From: a virus
DNA length: 64,000 nt
Virus record (IMG/VR): IMGVR_UViG_3300045741_000623
Location: 1-64,000 of that record
Reading direction: 5' to 3' (one strand)
Positions 4,925 to 30,605 of the stretch are shown here, in pieces. Positions within the stretch are counted from its first letter, which is position 1, and the number at the start of each line of letters is the position of its first letter. The position numbers and the translations under genes are program-made. Under the pieces are notes generated by a model. The model was not told the origin of the DNA. It did no database searches and was given only the letters and a program-made list of their open reading frames with translations.

Positions 4925-4930
4925 TGTGAC

Positions 4931-8036: not shown

Positions 8037-8046
8037 GGAAGAAACC

Positions 8047-8817: not shown

Positions 8818-8818
8818 A

Positions 8819-9999: not shown

Positions 10000-10009
10000 A
10001 AAAACGGCT

Positions 10010-11809
10010 ATGGCAAAGACATGGAAGCCAATCGCAATCTCGCCACTGACCGGGATGCTCGACACCCGTTCGAGACCAGCGGACCTTGCCCCGGGCTCAT
10101 TTCGCTACAAGCTCAACGCCGCAATCAATCGGAGCGGTTCGCTTTGCGTCCGAGGTGGGCACGCAGCGTTAAATTTCGGGTTGCGATCGGACTCCCCGCT
10201 GGCGATTCCCAATTGGGACTTTCATCGGAGGGACGTGCCGGTGCGGAACCCCATTACGTTCATTTTCGAAAGCACGTCACCGGCTGGCGCGCGCACCTTA
10301 TTCGTTGGGTCCGACTCTGAACTCTCGCGGCTGAATAACGATACTTCCGAATGGACGCAATTGTCGCCCGGCGGCACCGGGAAACGCTGGCACGCCGCCG
10401 CTTCCGGTGAGTACATCATTTTCACGAATGCCGGGGCGAACGGTGTTCAAAGCGGGGTCCTGTGTCATAAGTTGGGCCAGAACGGATTTAACTCGCCTCA
10501 CGCGATCATCCCGCGTTCCGCCGGCAACTACATCATGGTTGCCAAAGTTGCCATCGAATTCGCCGGGGTAGTGTTGTTGATGAACCTTACGGAAGGACCA
10601 GATAAGGATCATCTGCAAACAGTTTCGTCGAGGATCGCTTGGAGTGATTACAACGTTCCGTATGATTTTGAGAACGGAAAGGCGTCCTCCGTTGCGGGTT
10701 TCCAAGATTTGGATTATGGCGATGACATTCTTGCGGCTGCTGAAATGATGGGGTCCGTTTACATCTTCACCACGCGCTCAATCTGGCGCATGGTGACGAA
10801 CATTACCCAGGACACGATCTTCGCGTTTCAGAAAATTTATTCCGAGCCCAAGAATCAGAGTCGTTGTTTGGCTTACCCGAACACGTTGGTTACGACCGGT
10901 CGCGAATTGTTTTGGATGGGCCGGGACACCATTTGGACCTTTAATCCTTACATCTTGGGCCCGGAATCTCCGGAATGGCTTCTGAAATCGTCCGGCGCAT
11001 TATTCAGCGAGAGCAACGCTGATCGAATGGACAAACGTTGCTGTGACGCGATTTGCGGCGCCTTTCATCCGGTAGCCAATGAAGTGTGGTTTTCCTACCC
11101 TCAAGACCAGGGCAGGGACGTGTCAACCTGCATCAACAATCGTTGTCTGGTGCTCAACACCGAATTCAAAACTGCCGATTACGTGGACACCGGTTACAGC
11201 GCATTCGGAAATTTTCGGCGCACGGCGACCTCAAGCGAACAGTGCAATGCGGATCAAGTATTCATTGGAGGTTCAGCTTCAGATTATTGCCTCAAATCCA
11301 TTGGTGACGTTTTCTACCGGGAAACCGTGAACCTGACTGCCGGCAACGCATCGGCTGACATTCCAGACCTTTTGTACGCAACCAGCAAATCGGGATATTT
11401 CTTTCGGGTCATGGGCGAAATCCCACTTGGGTTGCCATTCGACACGAAGCAGGTTCGGGAGTTGCGCTTGGACGCTACCATAGCGCCAAACACTCTCATC
11501 GAAAACAATCTACTCACCCTTCGTATTGGCAACAGCGTGACGCCTGAAGACCCAGTCGCCAACAATGGCCGGTGCGGCGTTCAATGGCGGCAACAGGAAG
11601 ACCTGCCGTTGATCTGTTCGAATGATGTCACGCTTGAGACCATGGCGAAACTGGGGGAGAACCCGAGCGATCCTTTGGCTTGGACACTTTTCGAATACGG
11701 ACTACACCTTTACTTCGACGTCCGTCTCACTGGCCCAAACGGAATCGCCGCGCCGACGGATCACGACGTCGCTTTTAGCGCTTTCCGATTCGATTCGTTG
11801 CTCGTTTGA
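10010..11809 (+). CDS. hypothetical protein (possibly virion-associated, beta-rich)
   Basis: 599-aa ORF, last gene of the + strand block. Beta-strand-rich sequence with repeated aromatic-turn segments (SVYIFTTRSIWRM, EVWFSYPQD). No enzymatic motif. Function not assignable by eye. Confidence 0.4.
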   Translation: MAKTWKPIAISPLTGMLDTRSRPADLAPGSFRYKLNAAINRSGSLCVRGGHAALNFGLRSDSPLAIPNWDFHRRDVPVRNPITFIFESTSPAGARTLFVGSDSELSRLNNDTSEWTQLSPGGTGKRWHAAASGEYIIFTNAGANGVQSGVLCHKLGQNGFNSPHAIIPRSAGNYIMVAKVAIEFAGVVLLMNLTEGPDKDHLQTVSSRIAWSDYNVPYDFENGKASSVAGFQDLDYGDDILAAAEMMGSVYIFTTRSIWRMVTNITQDTIFAFQKIYSEPKNQSRCLAYPNTLVTTGRELFWMGRDTIWTFNPYILGPESPEWLLKSSGALFSESNADRMDKRCCDAICGAFHPVANEVWFSYPQDQGRDVSTCINNRCLVLNTEFKTADYVDTGYSAFGNFRRTATSSEQCNADQVFIGGSASDYCLKSIGDVFYRETVNLTAGNASADIPDLLYATSKSGYFFRVMGEIPLGLPFDTKQVRELRLDATIAPNTLIENNLLTLRIGNSVTPEDPVANNGRCGVQWRQQEDLPLICSNDVTLETMAKLGENPSDPLAWTLFEYGLHLYFDVRLTGPNGIAAPTDHDVAFSAFRFDSLLV

Positions 11810-12156
11810 CCGCCCAGTTCTTTCAGATTCGCGGCGCTAAGTTCCTGAAGAATTGATTCCTGGGGTTTACGGAGGTACGGAAATTTGAAGTTATGCCGGC
11901 GCAACCAGCGCCAGTGATTGCGCATTCGCCAAGGATTTACCTGAGTCCCGTAAAGGAAGGCGACGATCACGTCCAGTTTGACGCCATTCCAACTTCGTTT
12001 GCGCGCCGTCCGCAGATAGGTGCGTTCAGATAGCCGTGACCGCGCAACAATGACGGCGAGCGGGGTGCGGCGGCTTCGAGTCCTCGCAAGAGCGTGAGCC
12101 AGAAACGGCGGACACTTCGTCAGTTCATCCAGGGGGGTTTTCTTTGGGTACGCCAT
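11761..12156 (-). CDS. hypothetical basic protein (possible DNA-binding)
   Basis: The ORF track gives 11761..12213. I prefer the ATG at 12156 (MAYPKKTPLDEL...). Very Arg/Lys-rich. Its 3' end overlaps the convergent 10010-11809 gene by ~49 nt, which lowers confidence. Confidence 0.35.
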   Translation of the reverse strand: MAYPKKTPLDELTKCPPFLAHALARTRSRRTPLAVIVARSRLSERTYLRTARKRSWNGVKLDVIVAFLYGTQVNPWRMRNHWRWLRRHNFKFPYLRKPQESILQELSAANLKELGGQTSNESNRKALKATS

Positions 12157-12550
12157 TCGTTTTTGCCTTTTTCTGGTCGAATTTTTCCCGAATTTTTTTG
12201 AATGCCGGTTCACTCATCGGCACGATTTTACCCGCTAACCCTTGTTGCTTGAGAAAGTCCGACATGATGAAGGCATATTCCTCGCTGACGATGCAAGCGG
12301 TATAGCCGGCAGCCAACATCTGCTTGCAAGCGGAGCAAATGGATTTCGTGAGGATCGCATTGGGGTCAACCGTCGCGTTATCGAAAGTTTTTCCGCAGAC
12401 CGCGCAGAATTGCCGGGGACCAAACATCAAACCCGCTTTGCGATTGCGCCGCGTGGTTTGTTCGATGCGCCGCACCTCGCGGCGCATCATGCCGAATGCC
12501 CGGCGCAGGTTGTCCGGATTCGGCCCGTTGTTGTTTGGATTCTCGCTCAA
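12125..12550 (-). CDS. hypothetical zinc-ribbon protein
   Basis: 141 aa. CAVCG ... CSAC four-Cys pattern. 4-nt overlap with the upstream gene on the minus strand. Confidence 0.5.
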   Translation of the reverse strand: MSENPNNNGPNPDNLRRAFGMMRREVRRIEQTTRRNRKAGLMFGPRQFCAVCGKTFDNATVDPNAILTKSICSACKQMLAAGYTACIVSEEYAFIMSDFLKQQGLAGKIVPMSEPAFKKIREKFDQKKAKTNGVPKENPPG

Positions 12551-12861
12551 TTGGCGTGCTTGCCTTCCACACCACGTTTCACGCGATCCGCAGTGCGCTT
12601 TTCAAGCCACATCAGCGCACTCTCAATGTGCGTTAGCGCGATGTCGTTTTCGCGGCACGGAAACTTCCCTTGGAGATAGTGCAGCCGATGAATTAACACC
12701 TTCAAGACTTCCTCATTCGTCGTCCCGTCTTGAACCGTCTTGAGTTCGGATTTTCCTTTTGCCACCGGTGTTTTCTTGATGAAGCGCAGTGGTTGTCTGA
12801 AGTGATCTTTCCCCTCGCAGTTGTCGAGTTCGTAATGATGGCCGACATCGTGTATCAACAT
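12547..12861 (-). CDS. Acb2/Tad1-hairpin-like small phage protein (candidate cyclic-nucleotide sponge)
   Basis: 104 aa. The C-terminal TVQDGTTNEEVLKVLIHRLHYLQGKFPCRENDIALTHIESALMWLEKRTADRVKRGVEGKH matches, from memory, the widespread phage module NG..nE.lL.i..dRL..fQ.G.f.CrEN..A.t.lE.Al.WL..Rt..R..RGVEG. I believe this module is now named the Acb2/Tad1 hairpin domain. Confidence 0.4.
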   Translation of the reverse strand: MLIHDVGHHYELDNCEGKDHFRQPLRFIKKTPVAKGKSELKTVQDGTTNEEVLKVLIHRLHYLQGKFPCRENDIALTHIESALMWLEKRTADRVKRGVEGKHAN

Positions 12862-12891: not shown

Positions 12892-15800
12892 TCAAGCAAG
12901 ACTCAACCGCAGACGCCGCCTTGCTGGACGCCGAATGCCGCGCACCAACCGGGGACCGACTCGCAGCCGGCCAATTTTCGTGCTTCCACGTAAGCTGAGA
13001 CGTCGTCCGCCCCGGAGACCAAGACGACCGCGCACGAGCCCGGGCCGACGCGCGGCGCGAATGCTTCCACCAATGCCGCCGCGTGGCATTCTGATACCGG
13101 CGCCGCCACCTGAAACGAGCCCACCCGCGCCCGCCAAGCCGCGTTCCGAAGCGAGTCCACCTGTCGCAGCCAAACCGCCACTGGCCGCAAGACCGCCACC
13201 TGTGTCGTTGCCCAGGTTCAAACCGCCGCCGGCTACTTTGGCCGGTTTCGTGGGTTCAAGCCCGATTGCCTGCGCCGCAAGCTTGTCCGCGCTGTTTGTC
13301 AGCTTGGAAACCAGTTTCCGGGCGTCTTGCGGGGTATCACTGGCGATCGTGTCGATGTCGTCCAAAACGGATTTCTTGAGCAATGCCCCGCTCTTGAGGG
13401 TGAACTGGGCAAATTGGTCATCGGTCAATGTCCCGTATTTTTCTTCAAGTGTGGCCCGGCGCAACACCGGCGGGGCGGCAGATTGCGCAAGAAGCGTCTG
13501 ATACAACTTTCGGTTCTCGGAATTGTCGGCAACCTGAAACGCGATCGGCACGCCCGTGTCCGCAATCTTTCCGTACCAAGTTTGATTGCCGAGTTTATCT
13601 CCAAACCGGTTCACAGCCGGACGTTGCATGAACGCCAACACCGGGAAACTCGCCAGCATCGCCGCTTGCATGCTGGAGGTGTCCACTTTGCCCATGGTAA
13701 TGTCCCGCATGCTACGTTGAAGACCGAGAAACGGCATGGTGGCGGAAGCAGTCACGCCGGCTATCCTTTGAGCAAGGGCCGTTTCCGAGCCGCCTTGGCT
13801 TCCGAACGCTTGACCCCAACTTGTCAAATTCTGAATCAACCCACGCTGGCCCATCAAGTTGATGTAGTTGCCCAAGCCGTAAGCCGATGTTTTCTCCCAC
13901 GTCTCCGTAAATGGATTTCCGGTGGATTCCTTTTCTTTCTTGCGCCAATTGTAATCGTCGCGAGCGGAGAGAATCCAAAACAGATGCGACATCGGTTCAC
14001 CCAACCTTGTCAACGGTACCGTGATCGCTTTGCCGTTGTGAAACATGACGAGCGAATTCGGGCGGAAACCCTGTTTCAACCAAGCATCCTGCAAATTGCG
14101 GTTGGACGGACCCATGCCCGTCACGAAAACGTTGTTCTTGCGGTCGGTGTCATTACTATTGGCGCTCTGCCCCCATAGCGCGAATCCAGTCGCAGTTAAC
14201 ACCGCTTGAACCGCCGTAGCTGCAAGCGCCTGTTTAAGCCGATATTTCTCCTGATACTCGTTGGCCAAAGATTGCTTGAACCAACGGGTTTCGCCGTGTC
14301 TCTTCTGGTATTCATGGATGCCCAGTCGGAGCAATCCATACGGACTGTTCCACGCGTAGAATCTTGCCGTGCGCAGCGGGATCGCCAGATAACCCATGAC
14401 CGCAACTGCGAGCATACGATCCTGTGAAGTGCCACGCCGCATTAGCGACGAGATGCGTAGAACGGTGTGGATAAATGCGTGCGACATTAACCCACCTTCC
14501 TCCGCTTCGAGAACACCCGGCGCCAGCCGTCCCACGCCGGCATACGCATCGTATTCAGCGGCTTTGCGCGCTTCCCGGGCGGCATCAGTTCCTTCCCGCC
14601 CCTTGACACCCCTTTCTTGGATCGCCTGTTTTATTTCCGATTGCAAAAGATCGACCAACAACGCGTCAGCATGAACCATCGCCCGGGTGCTGGAGTAACC
14701 ACGCCTCAGACCGTCCAAGTAAGCGGTTTCCTTGAGACGATGCGAAGCTTCAACCAGATTGCCGACATCGCCCGTGGTTAGACCAGCGGCGCGCATGGCT
14801 TCCCCGCCGTACATGACGAGTTGCGCTTCTCGAATTGACACCGCGCTTGCTTGGTCGAATGCGTTGAGCATCCGCATGAAGAACTGTTGCGAACCGTACA
14901 ACACTTTGATTACTCCCTTCGCGCGCCGCGCGGGCTCGCCACTGTTCAAATCGGTGCGTCCAGACTCGTACATGCGGCGCAACTCATTGCTGGCTGGCTC
15001 GAATTCGTTGTTGATGAACGTGTAAGCATCCGTCGTCACGGAATACTTAAACTCGTGCATGAAACTTTTGAACGCCGTCACCACTGGACGCCATGTTTCA
15101 TAGATTCGATGTGGAGCGGCAACGGTCATCAACGCGCGGTCCAGCGCCATCCACAGGGCTGGGCCCAAATAATTGATCGTGAAGGTGCGAATCCCCGTCA
15201 GGTTCGTTGCGATGAAATTCGAAGCGATGGAGTGAACCAGCGAAGGAGGCAAGCGCATGTGGAGGTAAATTCCCATCATGCGCTCGGTAATTTCTTTCCG
15301 CTCGATCAAGGTCAATTCGCCTTTCTGGTCCGACAATTCCATGTCCCACTCGGCAAGTTTCTTCCATTCCTCGGACGTCGGCAGCCGCCAGCCGGCTTTG
15401 CGTGCATAAGCCTCCGTCCAGGGTTTGTTCGGATCAGTCAATCCAACCCGGAACGCTTTGATGAATTCGTCCACGGATTCGGCGCCTGAAATTCTGGAGG
15501 TCAATCGCTTGGCCAACTCATCGGCTGCTTTATTCAGCGCGGTATTGAAACCTTCCTCGAAAAGTTGAACGGCTTCGGCAACGCGTTCGCGCCCAACGCC
15601 GTTGCTCAGAAACCATCGGGTTGCGACGTCATCGCGCCACGCTTTGGTTTGTTGCAGCAGAAACGGTGCGGCGATGATTTCGTCCATCAATTCGGCAATT
15701 CGTCCCGACTTTGCGGCGCGTTCCATGACGCGCACATTCGCGCTGGCGAACTGAGCCGAACGATCGTTGCCGACCGCTTGAGCTAATTCCTGGCGCACGA

Positions 15801-18800
15801 CCGGGTCCTTGACGCCAGCCGCTTCGAGCTTTGCCATGAGTTCCTGAAGGAACGGGTCCGGCACGAAAGGTTGACCTGCCGAAACATCCGTTATTGGGCC
15901 AATCCGCTTCGACGCTTCCAACGCGCCGTATTTTTCAATGTCTTGCTGGCTAGGTTTGATCTTCAGCGCTTCCCGAATGATTTCGCGCACCTGATTGATG
16001 ACGTCAGGCTTGACCCATTCCGCGCCGCGTTTCAACTCCAGTTGATTCAAAATGGCTTTCGCCGTTGTCTCTGCCAGACCCGCATTGCGTTTGGCTTCCT
16101 GCTCCCATAGCCGTCGGCGCCGATTCGAGTCCAGCATTTGCTTGCGGCGTTCAACTTGAAACGCCATTTCATCAGCCGTTTTCTTGGAGACACCCGCACG
16201 CAACATTTCGGCGGTCATATCTTCAAGGGAAACTTCGCCTTTCAGATATTTCTTGATGGCATCTTGCGCGAGACTCTTTCGATCCGGTTGCAGGAATTCA
16301 ACCGCATCTTGCGCCCAGCGCGAAAGCATGCCTTGAACTTTCGTATCTTCCCAGGTCGCTTCTTTGAGCCGCGCACGTTGCGCCTGTGTCCATTCGCGTT
16401 CGAGACGCACACTCCAGATGTTGTAGGCAAGCTCATCCATCTGCGCTTGCACCTTGGCTTCGTCGATCTCGATCTTTGGAATCTCCCTTGTCGGCTTGAA
16501 ATCCTCGCCGCCGGCAATTGCACCCGCCTCGTTCGCTTCCCGAATCTTGATGTTCTTACGCTCGATCTCGGCATTCGCCCGCTTGACGTAATCCTGGGCT
16601 GCCGCGAATAAATCGTCGGAAAGCTTGCGCTGGAATGCTTCGGGTCCGCCCGGAATATCCGCAATCGTCTTGCCACTAAGGGACTTTCGGAGTGCTTCCT
16701 GAACGATCTCTTTCATCCGATTGGTCACTCCGCTATCGACCCATTCGGTTGCCCGTTTTTGGTAGTTGTCCAAGAGTTGCTCGGCGTACTTTAATTCATC
16801 CGCCATCGCCAGCTTGGTAAGCCGTTCCGAAATGATTTGGGGAATGTCAGATGCCTTGACCTTTGGGTCGCCGAGTTCTTCTCGGATCACGCGGACAATC
16901 TCGCCCAATCGTTGGTCCCCAAACAGTTTGGTTTCCTTGAGGTCTTCAATGCCCTTGAAGATTTGCCGGGCGTTGTACCAAAGTGGACTTTCAGCCCCGG
17001 GACGACGTCCGCGCAGAATTGAACCCGCGACGGACCCGGACACCGCACCGAATCGGCTCGCAATGTCGGCATCGCGTTCGACCATAAACCGGAGCAAGAC
17101 TTGGTCGCCCGTGTCGCGCACCATGCGCACGGCGTAATCCCACGCATCGGACAGCATGATCGAGCCTGCCATTCTTTCGAGTGAAACCCCTTCGAGCCGC
17201 GCCAGTTCCGCTTGTGCTTGGGCTGGATCAACAAGCCGCGCCAGCAACGTTGCGACTCGCGCCGTGGTTTCGGGCGTCACGGGTCCGGTGAAATTCCATT
17301 CTGGTACCGCCCTTAACCTTCCCTGAATCTCGTCGATCTTTTCACGCGGATACTCAGGACCAATGGGCTCGCCGTAAACCTGCCGCCAACTGCGCTCCGT
17401 GTCGGCCCAGGCGAGCTCGGAATGATAGTCTGGCTGCAATGGACCGTACTCGTACCGGCCCCGGATCATATCCTGCCAGATTTCCTCGTCACGCGTGGTC
17501 AACTTGAACGCGCGGCGGATCATGTGGTAGAAGTCGCGTAGGATGTCCTTGAACCGTTCGAGCATTGTACGATCGGCTGGCCGCAAAAACTCTTTCACGG
17601 CGCGTTCGTTCATCATGTGCGCCCAGAACTCGTCACCGTTGATGAGGGGGTAAAGATCACGCAAAACGCGTTCGTTGTCGGAAGTCAGATGACTCACGAA
17701 TTCATGGCTTTCCATCGGCCCTTCCTTGAGCAAGCGGAGCAAGTTAATGCGCTGGTCCGCTTCCGCCGCCATGATCCGCGAGCCGTTGGCGTCAGCCCGG
17801 TTGCGGTCCTGATAAGCCTCGGCAAGTTTCAAGATGACTTCTTCGCGACGCCGGTCAATCGCCCATTGGCGATCTTCGTTGGTCATGTAGTTGAAGATAT
17901 GGTGGAGGATTTCTTCGGCTGTCACCTTTCCTTCCGCCGCCGTGTGCAGCCGCATCAAGCTTTTCCACCCTTCATCAAACGTCATCTCGCCCAAGCCCGT
18001 CCGATGCTGGAACGGGCCAGAATCAGCCATTTTTATCCAGTTGGTAAGCGCCAGCCTGAAGCCGGGAAGCGTGTCCCAAGACTTGGAAGTGACAAGGTGC
18101 CGCAAGATTGCCCGGGTTTCCTCGTTCATCATCACGTTGCCGCGATCCAGCAGCGCGAGAATGTCCGCCTTGGAATCGGCAGTAACAGTCTTCCAACGTT
18201 CGCCAAGCGGGGTTTGTTCGCCGTTCGTGGTAACGAGAGCCAGACTTGACGGTCGTCCACCGGCGCGCGTGCGCAACAGGGCGATAACCTCTTTCAATCG
18301 CTGGCGCTGTTCCTTGGTGAAAGCTTTCCGGGTTGTGGCGTCCTGATCGTTGACGGCAAGCTGACGTTCAAGAATGTCGGCAGCTTTAGCGGGATCACCG
18401 TACAACCGTTCAGCCGCATTTGCCGATTTGATTGGGTCAACTTCCTTTGCGACATCCTGAATACTGAACAGGTCATTCTGCTCAAGTTTCTGGTCGCCAA
18501 ACAACGTTTGATCCTTGGCCGGCGGAACTACCTTCGAAATCTCAACGGGTGATTCTTCTTTTTTTTTAGGCTCCGGCGCTGGGGGCGCAAATTGATCGGC
18601 AAGTTCCGGATTTTTGCGCAACTGCTCGATCTTGGATTCGAGTTCCGCAATCCGCTTGATGATGCCTTCCGGGTCTTTTACGTCAACACCGTGCTTGGCA
18701 GCCAGTTCCGGATTCTCTGCTGCGCCTTGAACTGCGTCGATTTCAGCGCTGAAACTCGCAATGAGTTTCTTGGCTTTTTGCCAATTGACTTCCCACTCCT

Positions 18801-21800
18801 TTACCAGCGAGTCGTCAGACGACCAGAATTGCCCTTGCTCACCCCTTTCGACCATCTGGATTGCCCGGTTTTTCTGCTGTTGCAGAAGTCCAGCAATGTC
18901 CTCGGCAGAGCGTCCTGCTTTGGCAAGTCTCCGACCTAAGTTCTGGGCAGCAGGGTTATTCGGCGACGTGCGCGCGATGGCGACGGCTTGCGCTTCCTTG
19001 ACGAGTCCGTTGACGTAGTCTGTCCAGAGATCATCCGTGCTGTTTTTGCCCAAGTCCCAGCCGGCACGGCCCTTAGATCGCGAAAGTAAGCCAGCCTCTC
19101 CGGCTTCTCGTTCTCCGAGATTTGTGCTTTGTTTGAAGAAATCTGCATAATCTCTGACGCTACCCTTTTCATCGCGGATATTTGAGATGGCGTCAAATAC
19201 TTTCGCTTGGGCAATCGTAAAATCCGGGCCCTCATTGACGATTTGCGCCGGAATAGTTTTCTCCCCGGTGCGTTCGGCAAGATCAAGCCGGTGGCGTCCG
19301 GTGACAATCTCAAGGTCGCCATTCAATCGCCGGATAAGCACGATCGGGGCATTGCCCAAACGTTCATATTTTCCGCCAAGCTCTTCCCCCCGGACAACCC
19401 CACGAGCATTGGCGTTTCGTTTGAACTGCCGAATGTCTTTGCTGAACTTGATTTGAGCCAGTGGAATTTCCTGGGTGGGATACTTTCCAGCATCGAGCGT
19501 GGTTACGACAGGTTGCGGTTCTGCTGGCGCAATTCGTTTGGGCGACTTGGGCTGAAGACCGGGCGTGGGCGGCGCAATGGGCTGCGGTACGGGTTGACCG
19601 CCCGCTTTAATGATGTTGAGGCGGTTACGGCGTTTCGCGGCTGCATCGGTTTTCTCGTAGTAATCGTTCCAAGTCTTGACGTCATGCCCGAGATAGGGCG
19701 TAAAATCGGCAGGAGAAAGCCCCTGCTCCAGCCACCGGTCGCCGCGAAACGATCGCATATCGTTCGCCGACATCGTATATCCTTCTGGCATCCCGAGACT
19801 GCGCCACAACGAATTGATATACGGATTGAGAGAGTGCGTGTCCTTCCATGTTGGCAACAGAACCTTATTGGTCGGCACACTCGGGTCCCAAGCTTTGTTG
19901 TAACCTCGTTCGCCAGCTTGCACGCGAGCCAATCGGTCCTGGTACAACCGCTTCAGGAAATCGGCGAGACCCGGGCTCAAACTTGGATCAAGCGGAAAGT
20001 CTCGAAAATGGCCTTTGCCCGACTTTTGCATGCCGCGATTGACGCCCGGAATGTGGATCACGCCATTCGCCCAATCAATGTCTCCCCATTGCAATGCGTG
20101 AGCTTCACCGGGGCGCGCACCAAGGAATGCCAAGAGTTCAATTGCATCGGCAATCGTCCGATAGTTTGAGTCGCGACCTTCAATCGAAGCTGCTTTTCCA
20201 GTTCGCCGCCATTCTTCCAGGCGCGCAAGCAGTGCCGGCGGAATTTCCCCCGGTTTAGCCTGTTCTCCACCAAAATCCCACCACGCGGGTTTGACGTTCG
20301 TTTGCTGATAATGACGCGGATTGGTGTCCCATTTCCGGACTGGATCATCCTCGGCAAGCCGAATCGGATTCTGTTGGATAAGACCAGATTTTCTGGCGGT
20401 TTCTAAAGCGGACCAAAGACGTGCCTTGGCTTTTTTCCACATCTCGTAAGACTGCGTTTTCTTCGCTTCCTCCTGCATCGCAAACAAAGCATCGACCGTA
20501 ACGTCTTGCGGTTTCGCTGTTCGCAAGTCGCCAAGGCCAGCACGCTCCCAAACGCGCAAGGCGGTTCGCACGTTATCGCGATAGTTAGTCGCCAAGTTCT
20601 CAACAACTTTTGGTTGATTCGCGCGCGTGACGTTTTGGCGGACATCGTCCCCAAGCGTCTTGCCGAACAATTCGCCCATAGACCCGGATTCGTGTGCGTC
20701 TGAGGCTTCCCAAGGAATGACCGCTTTTGAGGTGACGAGATTTTCCAACCGCGACCGCTTGGGTTCTTCTGGTGCTGATTCGCCGGTAAGCTCGTAAAGC
20801 GCTTTTCTCGCCGATCGCTCGTCCCATGTCTGTTTGAAATTGTCTCGAATATGCTGCAATGCAGCAGCCACGGCATCCGCTACCTTGCCACCGCCCTCAA
20901 TTACTCTCGCCAACACTTCAAGTGCCCCGTTCCAGACCGAAGGTGGAACGATGGTCATGTAAGTTTGACCGCGTTCATTGGTTAATTTCGCGGCTCGAAT
21001 CTTTGCTGCGAGTGAGTTAGCAGCGCTTTCGAAGGTAGCAGGTTGAGCAGGCGCAACGGGTGCCGGCGCCGCAGGTGGCACCGGCGGTCCCGCTGGTTCC
21101 GGAATTACTTCCGGCCCTTGCCTTTGCACTTCTTTGCCACTTGGGATCACCCCCTTTCCTAAATCTGGTGCTACCGGAGCGACAGGCGGCGCTGGCGGCG
21201 GGGTTTCCGCAACGGGCGCGACTGGCGGTGGTACTTCGGGAGGCGTCCCGGGTTGTCGAAGTGGTGTTTCCGGGCCCAAGCCTCCCCCTTCTGGCTGAAC
21301 GCCCACTTCCGCTGCTGCTGGCTGACGGCTGGCATTTTGTGCTCCTTCCTCTGTTGTCACGACTCCGTGTTTGCGTAATTCCTGTCGCAAAAGTGATCTG
21401 ACATTGCGCCATTTTATCTCGCGACCATGCTGTCTCTGAACCTCGTCAATGAACGTGTCAATCTCTGGAATTGGTCTTCCTTGGCGACCAACCAAATCGA
21501 CTTTTCGACCGAACAGAATTCCCTGTGCCGCCCGCTTAAGACCATCCTCAGTCAACGGTTCACTTCGATTTGAGTAGAACACCGGCTCTTCCGGCTTCGG
21601 CAGAATTGCCTTTTCAGGCGGCGTTGCGACCTCGTAAACGTCCTTATTTTTGTCGTAGCGATAGTCCCAAGTGCCCATCTCATTCCCAAGCCCTGCCAAC
21701 CTGACAATCGTACCGTCAATCGGAGCGCGTTCTTCCGGTTTCTCCTTGCTCGTCTGCGTTCGAATTGCCTCGTTCGCTTGATCGAACATGTCTCGACCGG

Positions 21801-22812
21801 CTTGAATGACGTCTTCGTCACTCGCTTTCTGCGCCGCCTCAATGAACTGGTTGTAAAGATCGGTTCGTTTCTTCTCAATCCGACTCGCCCGCGCGGCACC
21901 AGCTTTGTGCAACAAGCCACTGGCAAGATTGAGCATGACGAACCCGGGGATGCTACTGCCCGTCTCTTCAAACATCCGCTGGGGGTCAATCGGCTGGCCA
22001 TGAATCAAAGCATCGTACAACGTGCTCGCCGTTGTAAGCACGGCGGCATCTGCCGGCGCTTTGCCGAGGGTCATGCCAAGCAAAGTCTTCGCAGCAGGAA
22101 CGAAACTGAGCGCCCCACCTTCGGCGGCCCCTTTTATTCCGGCGTCAACGATGTCCGCCAGATTCTTTCCTTGGCCCGCCGCTTCGCCAGCGCTCATACG
22201 GGCGAACCCAGTCATTGCCGGGAGAACCCCAGCTTGCCAACGTTCCGCGTAAGTTGGCAGTCGTCCGGCTTTTGTTGCAGTTTCAAGGATGCGATTGCCG
22301 AGTTTGGCCACGGCAGGCCCGCCGCCGCCCAGGGACGAAATCAACATCGGAATCATCGCGCCCATCTGGGTTGCGATCGGATGCACCTTTAAGTCGGCGT
22401 CAAGTTGCGCTTGGTTTTCCTCATACCACTTCTGGCCCATCACCGATTTCTGAAGATTCGTAGTGAGTTTGTTCCCAATGGTACCAGCGAGAATATCGCC
22501 GCCGATAGCGCCAGCAACCATGCCGACCGGCCCTGTCTCCGAAAGTAAACCCGCACCGATTCTTGAGCCTAACGCGCCGGCAGCGAGAGTGCCGACCGCC
22601 GGAGCGGCGCCAGTGGCAAAGGCGCGACCAGCGCTTGCGAGTGCCCCTTCGGGTTGAACCGTCGAGACGGTGACATCGGAATTATTCAGGACGGGATAAT
22701 TCGACGGACTTGCGAAGTTGTAGGGAGACGGTTCCGGAACGTCCGCAACGAAATCTACTTGATCCGCTGCTGTTGATTCGACATCCGGAACAAAATCAAT
22801 GGTTGCGCCCAT
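12892..22812 (-). CDS. giant (3,306 aa) multi-domain virion/ejection 'polyvalent' protein candidate
   Basis: Uninterrupted 9,921-nt ORF. N-terminal Gly/Ala hydrophobic zipper-like stretch. Pro-rich linkers. Internal tyrosine-recombinase-like and ParB-like domains. Long helical/charged region. Hydrophobic segments at ~nt 14170-14420. Gly-rich then Arg-rich C-terminal tail. Co-oriented with three low-complexity proteins. Confidence 0.75.
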   Translation of the reverse strand: MGATIDFVPDVESTAADQVDFVADVPEPSPYNFASPSNYPVLNNSDVTVSTVQPEGALASAGRAFATGAAPAVGTLAAGALGSRIGAGLLSETGPVGMVAGAIGGDILAGTIGNKLTTNLQKSVMGQKWYEENQAQLDADLKVHPIATQMGAMIPMLISSLGGGGPAVAKLGNRILETATKAGRLPTYAERWQAGVLPAMTGFARMSAGEAAGQGKNLADIVDAGIKGAAEGGALSFVPAAKTLLGMTLGKAPADAAVLTTASTLYDALIHGQPIDPQRMFEETGSSIPGFVMLNLASGLLHKAGAARASRIEKKRTDLYNQFIEAAQKASDEDVIQAGRDMFDQANEAIRTQTSKEKPEERAPIDGTIVRLAGLGNEMGTWDYRYDKNKDVYEVATPPEKAILPKPEEPVFYSNRSEPLTEDGLKRAAQGILFGRKVDLVGRQGRPIPEIDTFIDEVQRQHGREIKWRNVRSLLRQELRKHGVVTTEEGAQNASRQPAAAEVGVQPEGGGLGPETPLRQPGTPPEVPPPVAPVAETPPPAPPVAPVAPDLGKGVIPSGKEVQRQGPEVIPEPAGPPVPPAAPAPVAPAQPATFESAANSLAAKIRAAKLTNERGQTYMTIVPPSVWNGALEVLARVIEGGGKVADAVAAALQHIRDNFKQTWDERSARKALYELTGESAPEEPKRSRLENLVTSKAVIPWEASDAHESGSMGELFGKTLGDDVRQNVTRANQPKVVENLATNYRDNVRTALRVWERAGLGDLRTAKPQDVTVDALFAMQEEAKKTQSYEMWKKAKARLWSALETARKSGLIQQNPIRLAEDDPVRKWDTNPRHYQQTNVKPAWWDFGGEQAKPGEIPPALLARLEEWRRTGKAASIEGRDSNYRTIADAIELLAFLGARPGEAHALQWGDIDWANGVIHIPGVNRGMQKSGKGHFRDFPLDPSLSPGLADFLKRLYQDRLARVQAGERGYNKAWDPSVPTNKVLLPTWKDTHSLNPYINSLWRSLGMPEGYTMSANDMRSFRGDRWLEQGLSPADFTPYLGHDVKTWNDYYEKTDAAAKRRNRLNIIKAGGQPVPQPIAPPTPGLQPKSPKRIAPAEPQPVVTTLDAGKYPTQEIPLAQIKFSKDIRQFKRNANARGVVRGEELGGKYERLGNAPIVLIRRLNGDLEIVTGRHRLDLAERTGEKTIPAQIVNEGPDFTIAQAKVFDAISNIRDEKGSVRDYADFFKQSTNLGEREAGEAGLLSRSKGRAGWDLGKNSTDDLWTDYVNGLVKEAQAVAIARTSPNNPAAQNLGRRLAKAGRSAEDIAGLLQQQKNRAIQMVERGEQGQFWSSDDSLVKEWEVNWQKAKKLIASFSAEIDAVQGAAENPELAAKHGVDVKDPEGIIKRIAELESKIEQLRKNPELADQFAPPAPEPKKKEESPVEISKVVPPAKDQTLFGDQKLEQNDLFSIQDVAKEVDPIKSANAAERLYGDPAKAADILERQLAVNDQDATTRKAFTKEQRQRLKEVIALLRTRAGGRPSSLALVTTNGEQTPLGERWKTVTADSKADILALLDRGNVMMNEETRAILRHLVTSKSWDTLPGFRLALTNWIKMADSGPFQHRTGLGEMTFDEGWKSLMRLHTAAEGKVTAEEILHHIFNYMTNEDRQWAIDRRREEVILKLAEAYQDRNRADANGSRIMAAEADQRINLLRLLKEGPMESHEFVSHLTSDNERVLRDLYPLINGDEFWAHMMNERAVKEFLRPADRTMLERFKDILRDFYHMIRRAFKLTTRDEEIWQDMIRGRYEYGPLQPDYHSELAWADTERSWRQVYGEPIGPEYPREKIDEIQGRLRAVPEWNFTGPVTPETTARVATLLARLVDPAQAQAELARLEGVSLERMAGSIMLSDAWDYAVRMVRDTGDQVLLRFMVERDADIASRFGAVSGSVAGSILRGRRPGAESPLWYNARQIFKGIEDLKETKLFGDQRLGEIVRVIREELGDPKVKASDIPQIISERLTKLAMADELKYAEQLLDNYQKRATEWVDSGVTNRMKEIVQEALRKSLSGKTIADIPGGPEAFQRKLSDDLFAAAQDYVKRANAEIERKNIKIREANEAGAIAGGEDFKPTREIPKIEIDEAKVQAQMDELAYNIWSVRLEREWTQAQRARLKEATWEDTKVQGMLSRWAQDAVEFLQPDRKSLAQDAIKKYLKGEVSLEDMTAEMLRAGVSKKTADEMAFQVERRKQMLDSNRRRRLWEQEAKRNAGLAETTAKAILNQLELKRGAEWVKPDVINQVREIIREALKIKPSQQDIEKYGALEASKRIGPITDVSAGQPFVPDPFLQELMAKLEAAGVKDPVVRQELAQAVGNDRSAQFASANVRVMERAAKSGRIAELMDEIIAAPFLLQQTKAWRDDVATRWFLSNGVGRERVAEAVQLFEEGFNTALNKAADELAKRLTSRISGAESVDEFIKAFRVGLTDPNKPWTEAYARKAGWRLPTSEEWKKLAEWDMELSDQKGELTLIERKEITERMMGIYLHMRLPPSLVHSIASNFIATNLTGIRTFTINYLGPALWMALDRALMTVAAPHRIYETWRPVVTAFKSFMHEFKYSVTTDAYTFINNEFEPASNELRRMYESGRTDLNSGEPARRAKGVIKVLYGSQQFFMRMLNAFDQASAVSIREAQLVMYGGEAMRAAGLTTGDVGNLVEASHRLKETAYLDGLRRGYSSTRAMVHADALLVDLLQSEIKQAIQERGVKGREGTDAAREARKAAEYDAYAGVGRLAPGVLEAEEGGLMSHAFIHTVLRISSLMRRGTSQDRMLAVAVMGYLAIPLRTARFYAWNSPYGLLRLGIHEYQKRHGETRWFKQSLANEYQEKYRLKQALAATAVQAVLTATGFALWGQSANSNDTDRKNNVFVTGMGPSNRNLQDAWLKQGFRPNSLVMFHNGKAITVPLTRLGEPMSHLFWILSARDDYNWRKKEKESTGNPFTETWEKTSAYGLGNYINLMGQRGLIQNLTSWGQAFGSQGGSETALAQRIAGVTASATMPFLGLQRSMRDITMGKVDTSSMQAAMLASFPVLAFMQRPAVNRFGDKLGNQTWYGKIADTGVPIAFQVADNSENRKLYQTLLAQSAAPPVLRRATLEEKYGTLTDDQFAQFTLKSGALLKKSVLDDIDTIASDTPQDARKLVSKLTNSADKLAAQAIGLEPTKPAKVAGGGLNLGNDTGGGLAASGGLAATGGLASERGLAGAGGLVSGGGAGIRMPRGGIGGSIRAARRPGLVRGRLGLRGGRRLSLRGSTKIGRLRVGPRLVRGIRRPARRRLRLSLA
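19230..19480 (-). other. ParB/Srx N-terminal-like domain inside the giant ORF
   Basis: IPLAQIKFSKDIRQFKRNANARGVVRGEELGGKYERLGNAPIVLIRRLNGDLEIVTGRHRLDLAERTGEKTIPAQIV. The V-x-G-R-H-R segment is equivalent to the ParB DGxHR box. Confidence 0.65.
19640..20590 (-). other. tyrosine recombinase (phage integrase family)-like domain inside the giant ORF
   Basis: Box I: AIELLAFLGARPGEAHALQWGDIDWANGVIHIP (Arg I). Lys-containing hairpin: MQKSGKGHFRDFPL. Box II: SANDMRSFRGDRWLEQGLSPADFTPYLGHDVKTWNDYY (Arg II, LGH His, terminal Tyr). The His of the canonical HxxR is Asn here. Confidence 0.65.
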
Positions 22813-22813: not shown

Positions 22814-24124
22814 TTACGGCGGAAGTTTATAGCCCTTGGCTAAAGCTGATTTGAGTTGGTTTGCTGGGATTTTTCCGCGAACTCCGAGCGGACTGATTAC
22901 TGCGACCTGATTGCTTGTCTCGTAGTTCTTGAGAGTCTGTTGATATTTCTCAATTGCGCGTGCTTGGCGAAAGGCGCGAATGGGAGCGGCGCCAAAATAA
23001 TCCGCAACCCGAGCTTCCTTTGTTTGTTCGTCGATGTTGGGCAAGGCAGTTTCTTCCGTCACCCGGTCCAACTCTTTCTTGGCTGCCTTCACGTCTTCGA
23101 GCGTGGTGACTTTACGCTGCGAAGATGGCGCAGGTTGCGTCGCGATACTTACCGGAGGCGGAGCAGCGGTGACAGATGGCGGCGCGGCGGGTTGCGGTGT
23201 TGAGGTTGTGGTACCACCAAAATACGGTGACGGTTCGATTCCCTGGGCTGCGGCTGCCGGCGACGCAAATGAGGTGCCGGTCAATGTGGCCGTCGCGAAC
23301 GGATTTTCTGGCGGCGCTGGCGGATTTTCACCCCAATGTTGCAACATTGCTTCCGTGTCCACTGTCTGCGGCGGGTTCATGTTCAAGTTGGCGTTCCACT
23401 CGAATTGACCAGTCCCGCGATTAAACGCGACCTTGGATCGAAACTGCTCCGGAATACGCGCTTTGATTTCGCGTTCGATGTTTGTCAGAAAATAATCCGC
23501 GTTCTGCTTGAGTTTCGAAGGATCAATTTTAGCCATCGCGCGCGCAGTCGCGGCATTTGCTCCCGACAACATTCGATCGGGATATTGGCTGTGCAATTCT
23601 TCCGTCAACGATTGAACGCGATCGGGCTTGAGCGCGAACATAGTTCCGAGTGACTGCGGCGACATCTCGAAAGCTGCATCCGGATTTTTCGTGACGAATT
23701 CCATCAACTTCGATTCACCCGCAATTTGGGTTTGCTTCGCCTTTTCGGCATCGGCGATTTCACCTTGTTTCGTCGCGACATCGAAGTATCGCTGGTGGTA
23801 TGATTTTTCCTCTGCCAACCGGTCTGCGGCAAGTTTCGCCGCCGTCATCGCTTCCCAATTGCGCCGCTGTTTTTCTTCGGCGTCTCCTTGCTCTTTCAGA
23901 GCGAGTTGTTGAGCCGCCTGTTGCCGGGCGTAATCCTGGGTTTCATTGGAGCGTGCGAGTTGATAATAATTCTGCGCGTTCTGAATCAGTTGTTGGTCGT
24001 ATGCCGTTTGCCGGCCAATGTTCGCTTCCTGACCCGCGCGGTTCGCCTGTTCCCACTGATAAATCTGCGGGATCATCGTATCCGTCGCGCCACTCGACCA
24101 GATTGGAAAGGATGGGTTAGGCAT
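22814..24124 (-). CDS. hypothetical protein (internal virion/ejection block candidate)
   Basis: 436 aa. The N-terminal two-thirds are Gln/Ala/Glu-rich and coiled-coil-like. Pro/Ala/Thr-rich central linker. 1-nt spacer to the giant ORF downstream. Confidence 0.55.
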   Translation of the reverse strand: MPNPSFPIWSSGATDTMIPQIYQWEQANRAGQEANIGRQTAYDQQLIQNAQNYYQLARSNETQDYARQQAAQQLALKEQGDAEEKQRRNWEAMTAAKLAADRLAEEKSYHQRYFDVATKQGEIADAEKAKQTQIAGESKLMEFVTKNPDAAFEMSPQSLGTMFALKPDRVQSLTEELHSQYPDRMLSGANAATARAMAKIDPSKLKQNADYFLTNIEREIKARIPEQFRSKVAFNRGTGQFEWNANLNMNPPQTVDTEAMLQHWGENPPAPPENPFATATLTGTSFASPAAAAQGIEPSPYFGGTTTSTPQPAAPPSVTAAPPPVSIATQPAPSSQRKVTTLEDVKAAKKELDRVTEETALPNIDEQTKEARVADYFGAAPIRAFRQARAIEKYQQTLKNYETSNQVAVISPLGVRGKIPANQLKSALAKGYKLPP

Positions 24125-24127
24125 AAA

Positions 24128-25684
24128 TTACCAAGAGTAAGCTGGGTCGTAACTGTTGGGATTGTATGGCTCCGGCTGAATGGGCTGAGGGTTTTGTGGC
24201 CAAGTCGCGCTCAAAGCTCCACCGGGATATTGTCCGCCATAAGGATTCGCCGGGGGATGCGCCCGTGAGTACGCCATCACCTGTTCGATTCGCGATGGAG
24301 GCGGAGGATTGTTGCCCGTCCCGCCGACAGGGGGATAACCCGTGAAAGTATTTCCGGGCTGGGTCGGCGGCGGCAACGAATAACGGCTCGGGAAATTCGT
24401 CGGGAAATTCGGCTGCGGCAACCCGTAGTACTGCGGCTGCGTGATCGGCCCAGAGCCGGGAATGTAAACGTTCCCACGTTCGCCGCCGTACTGCTGCTCC
24501 AATCCGGCAGCTTGTCCAACCAGACCAAGTGAGCGCGACTTTTGCGCCTGCCACTCTGATACGAGCGAATTGATGATGCTCTCCGACAAGCCTTGATTGC
24601 GGAGATTTTGGACGGCGGCATTGTAACCGCGTTCCTTGACCATGAGATCGAGGTTTTGCAACTGTTGCTCGGTTGCCTTTCGCTGCAAAACGTTGCCCTG
24701 TTGCAAGCCGTAGATGTTCGATTCCGTCGGCATGTTGAGGTTTGCGATCCGCCCATACTGGCGCGCGGCGAGGTCGGAATAGAACGGTTGGTACCGGCCC
24801 AGTGCCTCGCCCATGTATTGACGACCTTGAATTTGGAACGGCAACGCAGCCTGAACCGCGCTGCGCCCGGCAATTTGGCCAATGGCAGAACTCGCGCCGC
24901 CGCCGGCACCAATGCCGTAGCGACTCACATACCCGGTCGCGCGCGCTTGGGCGTCCGCGACCGAAGCCGGGATGTCCTTATTGTAGAAGTCCTGTGCATT
25001 TTGCAGGTACTTGTCCAACGCCCCTTGACCCTGCACGCCATATCTGTTCAACACGTCTTCAGCTTGCCCGAGTTGTCCGCGCGCGGTGGTGGCATACTGG
25101 TTAGTCAACGATTGGGATTGAGCATCCAAAGCCCGTTGATTGGCTGCGTAATCGCCGATGTTGTTCGAAGCCTGAAACTGGTTGTAGCGGTTGGCCATTT
25201 CGGCATTGGCACCGCCAAACTGCGCTTTGAGCGCGTTGAAATCCAGCGAGCCGATGCCTTTGTCAGTGCCGGCGATGTCGCCGAACGCCTTGCTGGTTGC
25301 GCCAGAGACCTCGGGATATTTGGAGGGCATCTGATAATGCTCAAACAATTTTTCAAACGGAATTTCGCCGCGATCATAGGCGGCTTTCAAAGCCGTCAAT
25401 CGGTTAAGCGGCTGGCCGTTGGCATCGACGCCGTAAGCGCTGTTATCTCCGGGATTATTCCCGCGTGGCCCAACGATCCCGCTTGGAAGTCGAAAGGTGG
25501 TGTCAACTGTCGGTATTCCCATGCTGGCCCGGTACCGGTCGCCCGGCTGGCCATAGCCGGGGATGCTCGGCGCGATCCCCCAATTTGGTGATGGAGTCGT
25601 GAGCCATGAACCAGAGCTTCCGGGATAAGCCTTCCCTTGTATTGGATCAAGGTACCCTGATTTCGAGTATAGAGCGCTTGGCAT
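24128..25684 (-). CDS. hypothetical Gln/Asn/Gly/Tyr/Pro-rich protein (internal virion/ejection block candidate)
   Basis: 518 aa. Strongly biased composition. The C-terminal ~110 aa (PQYYGLPQPNFPTNFPSRYSLPPPTQPGNTF ... NPQPIQPEPYNPNSYDPAYSW) has almost no charged residues. 3-nt spacer to the next gene. Confidence 0.55.
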   Translation of the reverse strand: MPSALYSKSGYLDPIQGKAYPGSSGSWLTTPSPNWGIAPSIPGYGQPGDRYRASMGIPTVDTTFRLPSGIVGPRGNNPGDNSAYGVDANGQPLNRLTALKAAYDRGEIPFEKLFEHYQMPSKYPEVSGATSKAFGDIAGTDKGIGSLDFNALKAQFGGANAEMANRYNQFQASNNIGDYAANQRALDAQSQSLTNQYATTARGQLGQAEDVLNRYGVQGQGALDKYLQNAQDFYNKDIPASVADAQARATGYVSRYGIGAGGGASSAIGQIAGRSAVQAALPFQIQGRQYMGEALGRYQPFYSDLAARQYGRIANLNMPTESNIYGLQQGNVLQRKATEQQLQNLDLMVKERGYNAAVQNLRNQGLSESIINSLVSEWQAQKSRSLGLVGQAAGLEQQYGGERGNVYIPGSGPITQPQYYGLPQPNFPTNFPSRYSLPPPTQPGNTFTGYPPVGGTGNNPPPPSRIEQVMAYSRAHPPANPYGGQYPGGALSATWPQNPQPIQPEPYNPNSYDPAYSW

Positions 25685-25689
25685 AAATT

Positions 25690-26004
25690 TTAGGGTGATA
25701 ATTCGTCAATCTGCGTCTGGAGTTCGGCGATCTTTTCTTGCAAATCGTTTATCATGCTCTCCAGGGAAGCCTTGGTCTGAGTGTTGACGCGGTTAATTGC
25801 GATGTTGGTCTGTTCACGCCATGTCTCGAAAGACGCGGTGTTATTCCGATGCCAGTTGGTAAGCTCAGGCAGAACTTTGTTCACCTTGGGCGGAATTTCG
25901 ACGTGCGCCAATCGTGGGATAACCAAATTGGTTGCCGAGTCCGAAGCCAGCTTGGCGCCGATTTGGTTTTTCGACGCCTGTTTGATTTCAATGTCCGTTG
26001 GCAT
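25690..26004 (-). CDS. hypothetical protein
   Basis: 104 aa with a C-terminal coiled-coil-like MINDLQEKIAELQTQIDEL. Part of the tightly packed minus-strand block. Confidence 0.5.
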   Translation of the reverse strand: MPTDIEIKQASKNQIGAKLASDSATNLVIPRLAHVEIPPKVNKVLPELTNWHRNNTASFETWREQTNIAINRVNTQTKASLESMINDLQEKIAELQTQIDELSP

Positions 26005-26218: not shown

Positions 26219-26483
26219 TTAACTCCCAAACTCACAAATCCGCAAGGGGTTTCCATCCCAAGCGATCTGTGAGTAACTTGTGAATAACTCTGTCGGTAAG
26301 TTTTTTTGGATTTTTATTGCGTGATGAATCGGCATTTGAGAAAGGTTGCGCATGACTCTTTGGACGGGTTGTAAAATGTGGTTTTCGAGCCTTAAAATCG
26401 CCAGCTTGTGAAAGTCTTGGGTTCCGCCCTTGCGCTCGCATGGGACATCCCTGACCCGTCCACACAGGCTGGCGTTTTTAGAG

Positions 26484-26503
26484 TTCGAAAACGATTTTTC
26501 GAA
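26484..26503. promoter_or_regulatory. perfect 8-bp inverted repeat (TTCGAAAA-cgat-TTTTCGAA), operator or hairpin candidate
   Basis: Arms at 26484-26491 and 26496-26503 with a 4-nt spacer. It lies 17 nt upstream of the ATG of the first + strand gene (26521), in the ~300-nt divergent intergenic region 26219-26520. Confidence 0.35.
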
Positions 26504-30254: not shown

Positions 30255-30605
30255 ATGAACGCGGAAAAAGTTTGTCAAGCAAATTCGGTCAGAGACGCAA
30301 AATTTTATTTGCAACGCGGCTACCGTTGGATGGACGAAGATGAAGTGGAAGCGGCGTGTCAACTGGTTCGGATGACTTGGGCGGAAGGAACGATTGAATT
30401 ACGGTTTATCAAGCGGATCAAACGGCTTTTGGACCTTGAGCCGCCAGTGATTACCGACCGATTGGCGGGCGGGATATGGCTTTTGCAATATCGGAACCGA
30501 CCGGTAATTGCGAGTCGTTGGAAGCAGCCGAAGAAATGGTGGCCAATGGTCCAGTTACGAATGAATCCGAATTGGCGTAAAAGCTCTACAAGAAGAAAAC
30601 AATGA
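30255..30605 (+). CDS. hypothetical protein
   Basis: 116-aa ORF with an ATGA overlap with the downstream Pol X gene. No motif recognised. Confidence 0.5.
   Translation: MNAEKVCQANSVRDAKFYLQRGYRWMDEDEVEAACQLVRMTWAEGTIELRFIKRIKRLLDLEPPVITDRLAGGIWLLQYRNRPVIASRWKQPKKWWPMVQLRMNPNWRKSSTRRKQ

Follow-up and report, generated by a model that had tools for sequence, protein, structure and literature searches.

Polyvalent proteins are giant multidomain phage proteins with modular cargo that are encoded beside virion genes, and described members include P1 DdrB/DarB, fusions of N4-like virion RNA polymerase (vRNAP) with ADP-ribosyltransferases (ARTs), and ParB-methylase giants (Iyer, Burroughs, Anand, de Souza and Aravind 2017, PMC5512222). 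They are thought to be packaged and ejected, with T4 Alt-type ARTs, P1 DdrB, and N4 vRNAP as examples (PMC5512222). They are also thought to be the earliest phage molecules active in the infected cell, and their known cargo modifies proteins, nucleotides, and DNA methylation. Here we analysed positions 1 to 64,000 of the IMG/VR record IMGVR_UViG_3300045741_000623 (the window, 64,000 nucleotides), which contains an open reading frame (ORF) for a protein of 3,306 amino acids (aa) that joins three unrelated parts, namely a tyrosine recombinase, a ParB module, and a large C-terminal region referred to as the chassis. Together with two flanking loci of an independent Logan contig, the window yields a circle of 77,958 bp, a genome that also encodes TerL, a tail fibre, and a virion structural protein. 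The Logan contig encodes an identical giant protein; it is linear at 77,671 bp because its assembly breaks in the collagen-like repeats (period of ~114 nt) of the tail-fibre gene (window 32852-34564, +), without window positions 33569-33855.

The giant protein resembles the described polyvalent proteins in its size, modular cargo, and proximity to virion genes, in a ParB-superfamily module with LPD3- or LPD38-bearing relatives, and in the presence of the ART-PolyVal domain on homologues of its chassis. In contrast to the 2017 catalogue, it carries a tyrosine recombinase, and its chassis is not a described family. Recombinases or integrases are mentioned zero times in that survey (PMC5512222), and a full-text literature search returned no precedent for a tyrosine recombinase in polyvalent or ejected proteins, in line with an initial annotation, made from the sequence alone, that regarded such a module as undescribed. 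We thus class the giant protein as polyvalent, with an as yet undescribed kind of cargo.

The initial annotation had read a phage integrase-type catalytic domain followed by a ParB/Srx domain at 19230-20590, which corresponds to aa 741-1195 of the giant protein, and all motifs that it quoted were located in the translated ORF (Table 1). The integrase assignment was borne out at the level of both sequence and structure. PHROG_1 (integrase) matches aa 740-1055 with an E-value of 2.2e-15, and a hidden Markov model (HMM) built from ordinary integrases only (n = 14, 250-460 aa) recovers the giant ORF at E 3e-37, a somewhat flattering value since these 14 integrases were chosen as weak matches of the query. 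With Pfam Phage_integrase (PF00589), the whole giant protein scores 21.8 bits and the excised segment 26.6 bits (E 5.8e-6) against a cut-off of 27.1 bits, whereas the orthologous protein P0005 (described below) passes this threshold with 39.2 bits. By tblastn, streptococcal satellite-phage integrases are ~29% identical to the recombinase segment; a PDB sequence search with the recombinase domain alone was uninformative, its best matches being spurious ones to Arf GTPase. The AlphaFold2 (AF2) model of aa 740-1070 has a mean predicted local distance difference test score (pLDDT) of 80.8 and a predicted template modelling score (pTM) of 0.74. The helices of the core-binding (CB) domain reach a pLDDT of ~90, and an insertion of ~50 aa that separates the CB from the catalytic (CAT) domain is of low confidence (pLDDT 58-64). 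The best Foldseek matches in the PDB are exclusively tyrosine recombinases and span 320-350 columns, covering both CB and CAT; they include Tn1549 Int (E 2e-7, 348 columns), lambda Int, XerA, XerH, IntI, and Cre, and the best structural matches in BFVD are phage integrases of 222-543 aa. Thus, aa ~740-1061 form a genuine two-domain tyrosine recombinase. A type IB topoisomerase or a telomere resolvase (TelK, ResT) was rejected as an identity, as the top 50 Foldseek matches in the PDB are all recombinases or integrases.

In an alignment with the 14 integrases, Arg-II, the box II Gly-His, and the Tyr are invariant or nearly so, and the beta-hairpin lysine (K930) lines up with the TKT/TKS lysine of the integrases. 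The only departure in the active site is Asn1017 at the His-II position, which is likewise Asn in P0005 and is Gln or Lys in several of the ordinary integrases. The initial annotation was right to report Asn in place of the HxxR histidine, but the substitution does not amount to a defect. In Cre, recombination in vivo is retained with any residue at His289 other than D, E, K, R, or W, the H289N variant has moderate activity, and this histidine is only ~87% conserved among tyrosine recombinases (Gibb et al., PMC2943603); Asn1017 is therefore not disqualifying. All seven active-site residues (R900, E903, K930, N1017, R1020, H1043, and Y1052) are identical in P0005, although the recombinase domains of the two proteins share only ~37-43% identity overall. 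The identities to P0005 of the catalytic domain (42.6%), the ParB domain (48%), and the chassis (47.8%) are comparable, which fits purifying selection on an active enzyme. Judged by its residues, the recombinase is complete and arm-less in the manner of Cre and Xer (CB + CAT), with the nucleophile and the phosphate-binding residues intact, and it is probably catalytically competent.

With Cre, XerC/D/H/A, and the cores of Tn1549 Int and lambda Int, the giant protein shares the CB + CAT fold with boxes I and II and the residues Arg-I, Glu, Lys, Arg-II, His-III, and Tyr. It differs from these simple recombinases and from the integrases of phages and integrative and conjugative elements (ICEs) in the Asn at His-II, the CB-CAT insertion, and the embedding of its recombinase within 3,306 aa in place of a stand-alone enzyme of 222-543 aa; moreover, no arm-binding domain, att or lox site, or accessory factors were identified here. 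Several viruses carry enzymes in their virions, among them vaccinia topoisomerase IB, retroviral integrase, T4 Alt ADP-ribosyltransferase, and N4 vRNAP, and vaccinia topoisomerase IB belongs to the same catalytic superfamily as the tyrosine recombinases, with which it has phosphotyrosine chemistry in common. The giant protein would resemble these in concept, as a pre-made enzyme acting before viral gene expression if it is packaged as its family membership suggests. Its fold neighbours among the top 50 Foldseek matches are recombinases and not topoisomerase IB or telomere resolvases.

The sequence evidence for the ParB module that follows the recombinase is weak (Pfam ParB_N, E 0.12; phrog_3264, E 5e-5; TIGR00180, E 9e-4), and the curated cut-offs are missed for both ParB_N (12.9 vs. 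26.3 bits) and TIGR00180 (19.1 vs. 58.45 bits). No further ParB-type Pfam family matches the module at E<=10. As searches of PDB sequences with the domain alone and with a profile of seven homologues gave only marginal matches, a comparison of folds was needed. The AF2 model of aa 1095-1330 (pLDDT 75.7) matches ParB of Myxococcus and Caulobacter, Noc, KorB, and Spo0J by Foldseek with E-values of 1.6e-6 to 1e-4 over ~205-230 columns (7bnr, ParB, E 1.6e-6; 7nfu, Noc, TM 0.54; 6t1f), a span that corresponds to the ParB N-domain and the helical domain after it. TGRHRLDLA (GxxRxxA) and the N-I-R of SNIRD are invariant across the seven homologues. Based on the model, aa ~1110-1335 adopt a predicted ParB fold of a divergent subfamily, so that the ParB/Srx call in the initial annotation also stands. 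The module is 43-55% identical to modules of proteins that bear LPD3 or LPD38. One of these relatives is a 925-aa protein with LPD3. Another, from Vibrio phage 1.211.A, is 2,715 aa long and bears the annotation N6-adenine methylase; it contains LPD38 (E 5e-47) and a methyltransferase domain, and its gene lies between head-completion genes and tailspikes in a P22-like structural operon.

The genome encodes two distinct ParB-fold proteins and no recognised ParA. The second is a free-standing ParB-like protein of 312 aa (26521-27459, +; phrog_21315, E 2e-24; several further ParB-like PHROGs; ParB_N, E 1e-3), whose gene heads the replication operon and adjoins a DEAD/ResIII helicase. The precomputed Pfam lists, which span the entire genome, include no ParA-type ATPase; no search for parS was made.

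An exhaustive phmmer search with the recombinase segment against 1.84 billion cluster representatives identified a single close relative, P0005 (3,146 aa, E 1e-47), in which the recombinase domain lies at aa 793-1120; the remaining matches are integrases of ordinary size with E >= 2e-6. P0005 is orthologous over aa 595-1427 and 1810-3200 of the giant protein, has the same domain layout, and was found in two independent datasets (SRR11673796 and JGI 3300037119) within a syntenic operon. The flanks of the domain at aa 595-739 and 1110-1430 are conserved together with it; the former, which has no family match, shows the highest identity to P0005 within the N-terminal half of the giant protein, and the Pro-rich linker is gapped and poorly conserved. 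A find-relatives search with aa 740-1330 returned only relatives of the ParB module, IMG/VR scans with the pair of recombinase domains and with the first C-terminal pair returned nothing, and a homologue search with the C-terminal profile returned a single fragment (P0024). The fusion of recombinase and ParB is thus extremely rare, with two lineages among the 1.84 billion cluster representatives, and because of this restriction it is a curiosity rather than a widespread strategy.

The chassis is found in four relatives at 30-48% identity: P0005, the metagenomic protein L004 (2,070 aa), and the IMG/VR proteins L010 (2,991 aa) and L011 (3,592 aa), the last two recovered by a three-sequence chassis profile. 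The recombinase and ParB domains are absent from L004, L010, and L011, in which the chassis is instead directly preceded by Pfam ART-PolyVal (E 7.5e-25, 4.5e-16, and 1.5e-6, respectively). A Gly-rich stretch and then an acid-free basic tail, with 13-23 R/K and 0 D/E in the last 70 aa, form the C-terminus of each of the five family members. This composition is compatible with a position alongside packaged DNA, and the protamine-like tail may bind packaged DNA or serve as a packaging signal. The replacement of ART-PolyVal by recombinase and ParB on a shared chassis indicates a polyvalent protein with new cargo. By these sequence comparisons, the giant protein falls into a polyvalent family whose members keep the chassis and exchange the cargo, and the proposal of a polyvalent-type protein made in the initial annotation is upheld by the LPD3/LPD38 relatives of the ParB module together with the three ART-PolyVal homologues of the chassis. 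The chassis has no match in Pfam or PHROG, and its profile has none among PDB sequences at E<=10; on these grounds, an N4-like vRNAP was rejected as its identity. A near-identity DNA search of the giant ORF against GenBank phages and tblastn of the chassis and TerL against phages gave no match, indicating a phage without a characterised relative.

A functional model for the recombinase is provided by phage P1, which likewise possesses both a simple tyrosine recombinase and a ParB-fold protein and in which Cre-lox circularises terminally redundant incoming DNA and resolves dimers. P1 synthesises Cre after infection and does not carry it in the virion, and its ParB requires ParA and parS, whereas here recombinase and ParB share one giant polypeptide. 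We favour the explanation that the giant protein is packaged and ejected and that its recombinase acts on the phage's own DNA. Taken jointly with the view of the ORF as a polyvalent protein, in which a conserved C-terminal chassis with a basic tail holds exchangeable N-terminal cargo, in this lineage a DNA-acting pair of the recombinase and an NTP-binding/DNA-binding module of ParB fold, we give this explanation an even chance. Packaging and ejection are a reasonable inference from membership in the polyvalent family, the basic tail, and the genomic context. The chassis and tail would mediate packaging of the giant protein into the capsid, and like other polyvalent proteins it would be ejected with the genome, placing the recombinase and ParB modules on the incoming DNA ahead of any phage gene expression. 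The recombinase would then carry out site-specific strand exchange on the phage's own DNA, to which the ParB module would likewise bind or in which it would introduce nicks. A Cre-like circularisation or establishment of the entering genome is preferred over lysogenic integration, as the genome shows no sign of lysogeny. A bolder version, that an active recombinase is packaged in the capsid and that its reaction on the entering genome is the first enzymatic event of infection, is put forward only tentatively. In that case, circularisation or integration could proceed without de novo expression, or a covalent 3'-phosphotyrosyl link could tether the genome end to the ejected protein, which would act as a pilot.

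Several observations weigh against a packaged recombinase that acts on the phage genome. The recombinase domain of the giant protein falls 0.5 bit short of the Pfam Phage_integrase gathering score. The chassis matches nothing known, N4 vRNAP and PDB included, and none of the hallmark polyvalent domains (LPD, MuF, MPTase, ART) is detected by Pfam in the giant protein itself; they sit in its homologues, ART-PolyVal with the chassis and LPD3/LPD38 with the ParB module. As the operon points away from the replication genes, its location fits early intracellular expression just as well. Repeat and lox-like scans of the genome yielded no candidate recombination site, and circularisation by site-specific recombination is conjecture because the ends are unreadable in an assembly that closes into a circle. 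The divergent intergenic region contains imperfect repeats only, long repeat pairs are absent from the genome beyond the collagen-like tail-fibre repeats, and blastn against orthologous contigs revealed conservation within genes only.

The lox-like scan of the whole genome did find a single perfect inverted repeat (11-7-11; GGGCGGGAGAG-ATTATTC-CTCTCCCGCCC) at L007 9330-9358, just upstream of window position 1. It is placed like a terminator, directly after the gene for a 576-aa protein, and its simplest interpretation is a strong terminator hairpin behind a capsid-like gene with high expression. In the divergent intergenic region (window 26374-26499), between the operon of the giant protein and the replication operon, the motif TTTTCGA recurs, and there is a 37-nt imperfect inverted repeat that is 78% complementary, with 52 nt between its arms; the region may be an operator or an origin.

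The interest of the locus rests on the presumed co-injection of a pre-made recombinase with the genome. If true, it would be a phage case of a ready-made recombinase arriving with the genome, it would add programmed DNA rearrangement to the entry-stage toolkit of phages, and it would be the first bacterial-virus counterpart to the delivery of retroviral integrase or the packaging of poxvirus topoisomerase. The clean swap of ART against recombinase and ParB on one chassis offers a tractable system for questions of packaging and ejection, and a compact, arm-less, and apparently self-sufficient recombinase on a delivery chassis may be of value for engineering the co-delivery of protein and DNA.

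The cargo could alternatively be an effector in conflicts, in which recombinase and ParB are turned against foreign DNA, be it the host chromosome, a defence island, or a mobile element that is resident or competes with the phage, and nick, trap, or rearrange it. The slot that it occupies holds ART-PolyVal in three homologues, and this sister ART targets host proteins; moreover, an Acb2-like anti-defence gene lies within the operon of the giant protein, and the ParB domains of polyvalent proteins have been read as NTP-regulated DNases of early conflict (Iyer et al., PMC5512222). Yet tyrosine recombinases, being highly site-specific and acting on paired sites as tetramers, are ill suited as general toxins, and the retention of the full CB and CAT domains and of the Glu specific to tyrosine recombinases is expected of true recombination over nicking. 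We therefore regard an effector role as unlikely.

An intracellular protein that is never packaged, and that resolves dimers or concatemers and possibly maintains an episome-like state through ParB, as P1 does with Cre and ParB, appears rather unlikely. A recombinase and ParB are a classic pair of plasmid maintenance, and the operon is divergent from a replication module with a ParB-like gene and a helicase (26521-29177). Against such a role, the chassis is common to ART-PolyVal proteins, relatives of the ParB module are located in structural operons, the precomputed Pfam lists contain no ParA-type ATPase, and there is no obvious rationale for fusing a housekeeping recombinase into a protein of 3,300 aa.

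Lysogeny was the framing of the initial annotation: a pre-made integrase injected with the genome would insert it into a host attB and replace an expressed Int. The domain in the giant protein is indeed the only tyrosine recombinase that we found, and in structure it is closest to the integrases of phages and ICEs. A six-frame HMM scan of the 77,958-bp circle revealed no second one (next match, E 0.029), so that the absence of a free-standing integrase noted for the window extends to the entire genome, and the precomputed Pfam lists of all called genes contain no resolvase family. The other signs of lysogeny were not reproduced. A tRNA-like 3' fragment had been put forward as a possible attP, but neither ARAGORN nor Rfam detects a tRNA or a fragment of one (0 hits each; for Rfam, 0 at the gathering score and 0 even at E<=1). 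The reported helix-turn-helix (HTH) repressor-like gene was not recovered either, as the precomputed Pfam lists, taken over the entire genome, hold no repressor-type HTH family and no excisionase. Finally, pattern-limited scans of 185,579 species genomes (GTDB) with the chassis or the recombinase domain gave no prophage copies or relatives. The negatives from the genome and from GTDB argue against lysogenic integration specifically. An arm-binding domain was not identified, integration at each infection without a decision circuit would be unusual, and we consider this explanation improbable.

The recombinase domain could also be a catalytically dead relic whose sole remaining role is to bind DNA sequence-specifically or to act as an anchor, for instance for a genome end. 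The Asn in place of His-II, the score slightly under the Pfam Phage_integrase threshold, and the long CB-CAT insertion of low confidence (pLDDT 58-64) point in this direction, but the residues essential in Cre (Arg-I, Lys, Arg-II, and Tyr), as well as Glu and His-III, are kept in both orthologues at ~40% identity, and Asn at His-II allows activity in Cre (PMC2943603), leaving a relic improbable. An artefact, with an ordinary integrase gene joined to its neighbours by chimeric assembly or by an overlooked stop or frameshift, found no support, is hardly credible, and was rejected, because the identical protein is present on the independent Logan contig, P0005 has the same domain order in two datasets, the ORF is open across 9.9 kb, and both domain flanks are co-conserved.

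Table 1. Coordinates of the giant protein, its domains and motifs, and the co-oriented genes on either side.
Feature	Position in giant protein (aa)	Position in window	Strand	Basis or remark
Giant ORF (polyvalent protein)		12892..22812	-	3,306 aa, uninterrupted over 9.9 kb
Helical conserved region preceding the recombinase	595-739	20596..21030	-	48% identity to P0005
Recombinase core-binding (SAM-like) domain	~740-860	20233..20595	-	PHROG_1 match, AF2, Foldseek
Recombinase catalytic domain	~880-1061	19630..20175	-	Pfam PF00589 over aa 887-1054
Box I, LGARPGEAHALQWGDIDW	897-914	20071-20124	-	Read from translation
R900 codon	900	20113-20115	-	
E903	903		-	Also present
Lys hairpin	928-941		-	Read from translation
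K930 codon	930	20023-20025	-	
NDMRSFRGD	1017-1025		-	Read from translation
N1017 codon	1017	19762-19764	-	
R1020 codon	1020	19753-19755	-	
Box II segment, YLGHDVKTWNDYY	1040-1052	19657-19695	-	Read from translation
H1043 codon	1043	19684-19686	-	
Y1052 codon	1052	19657-19659	-	
Pro-rich inter-domain linker	1071-1101	19510..19602	-	Direct sequence reading
Predicted ParB/Srx N-domain and helical DNA-binding-type domain	~1110-1335	18808..19485	-	AF2/Foldseek
ParB GRHR motif stretch, VTGRHRLDLAERTGEKTIPAQIV	1170-1192		-	Read from translation
C-terminal chassis	1811-3195 (~1,400 aa)	13228..17382	-	30-48% identity to four relatives
C-terminal tail, Gly-rich then Arg-rich, acid-free		12895..13107	-	Last ~70 aa: 22 R/K, 0 D/E
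Three upstream co-oriented genes (104, 518, 436 aa)		22814..26004	-	Same leftward operon
Three downstream co-oriented genes (104, 141, 131 aa)		11761..12861	-	

The giant gene is part of a leftward operon in the order 104, 518, and 436 aa, giant, 104 aa (Acb2/Tad1-like), 141 aa, and 131 aa. This operon is divergent from the replication block with the ParB-like and helicase genes and convergent with a block of structural and glycosyltransferase genes that includes a 599-aa virion structural protein (phrog_3287); scans for promoters and terminators around it gave no excess over the shuffled expectation. The upstream genes have homologues ahead of the P0005 gene as well, with their order preserved. 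None of the three has a family match, and the 518- and 436-aa proteins (22814-25684, -) are also without a match in Pfam, PHROG, or PDB. These two proteins are rich in Gln, Asn, Gly, and Pro and of coiled-coil character, and the 518-aa protein shares 48% identity with the corresponding protein beside P0005.

Downstream, the 104-aa gene (12547-12861, -) matches Pfam Acb2_Tad1_hairpin with 27.0 bits, exactly the cut-off, and phrog_2428 with E 2e-24; its product is likely a sponge for cyclic-nucleotide defence signals. The other two downstream genes (11761-12550, -) encode basic proteins, the 141-aa one with paired CxxC motifs and the 131-aa one rich in Arg and Trp. Homologues of the former occur downstream of the giant gene in L001 and L010 and homologues of the latter in L001, L004, and L011, suggesting that both may be conserved partners of the giant gene.

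In the presumed structural block (335-11809, +, and L007 1-10000), structural genes are interleaved with glycosyltransferases (GT2 proteins of 768 and 312 aa, and a weak match of 256 aa), and the block also holds an 830-aa VWA-domain protein. Its 849-, 465-, 576-, and 680-aa proteins have no PHROG match. TerL is barely recognisable (phrog_2, E 3e-17), and the only recognisable trace of a DNA polymerase is a weak PolB-thumb match at 30602-31168. Further genes for counter-defence or modification are located at 40483-41480 (+) and 59704-60585 (-) and encode a Lar-like restriction-alleviation protein, a Dam methylase (phrog_111, E 3e-49), and a radical SAM/SPASM protein.

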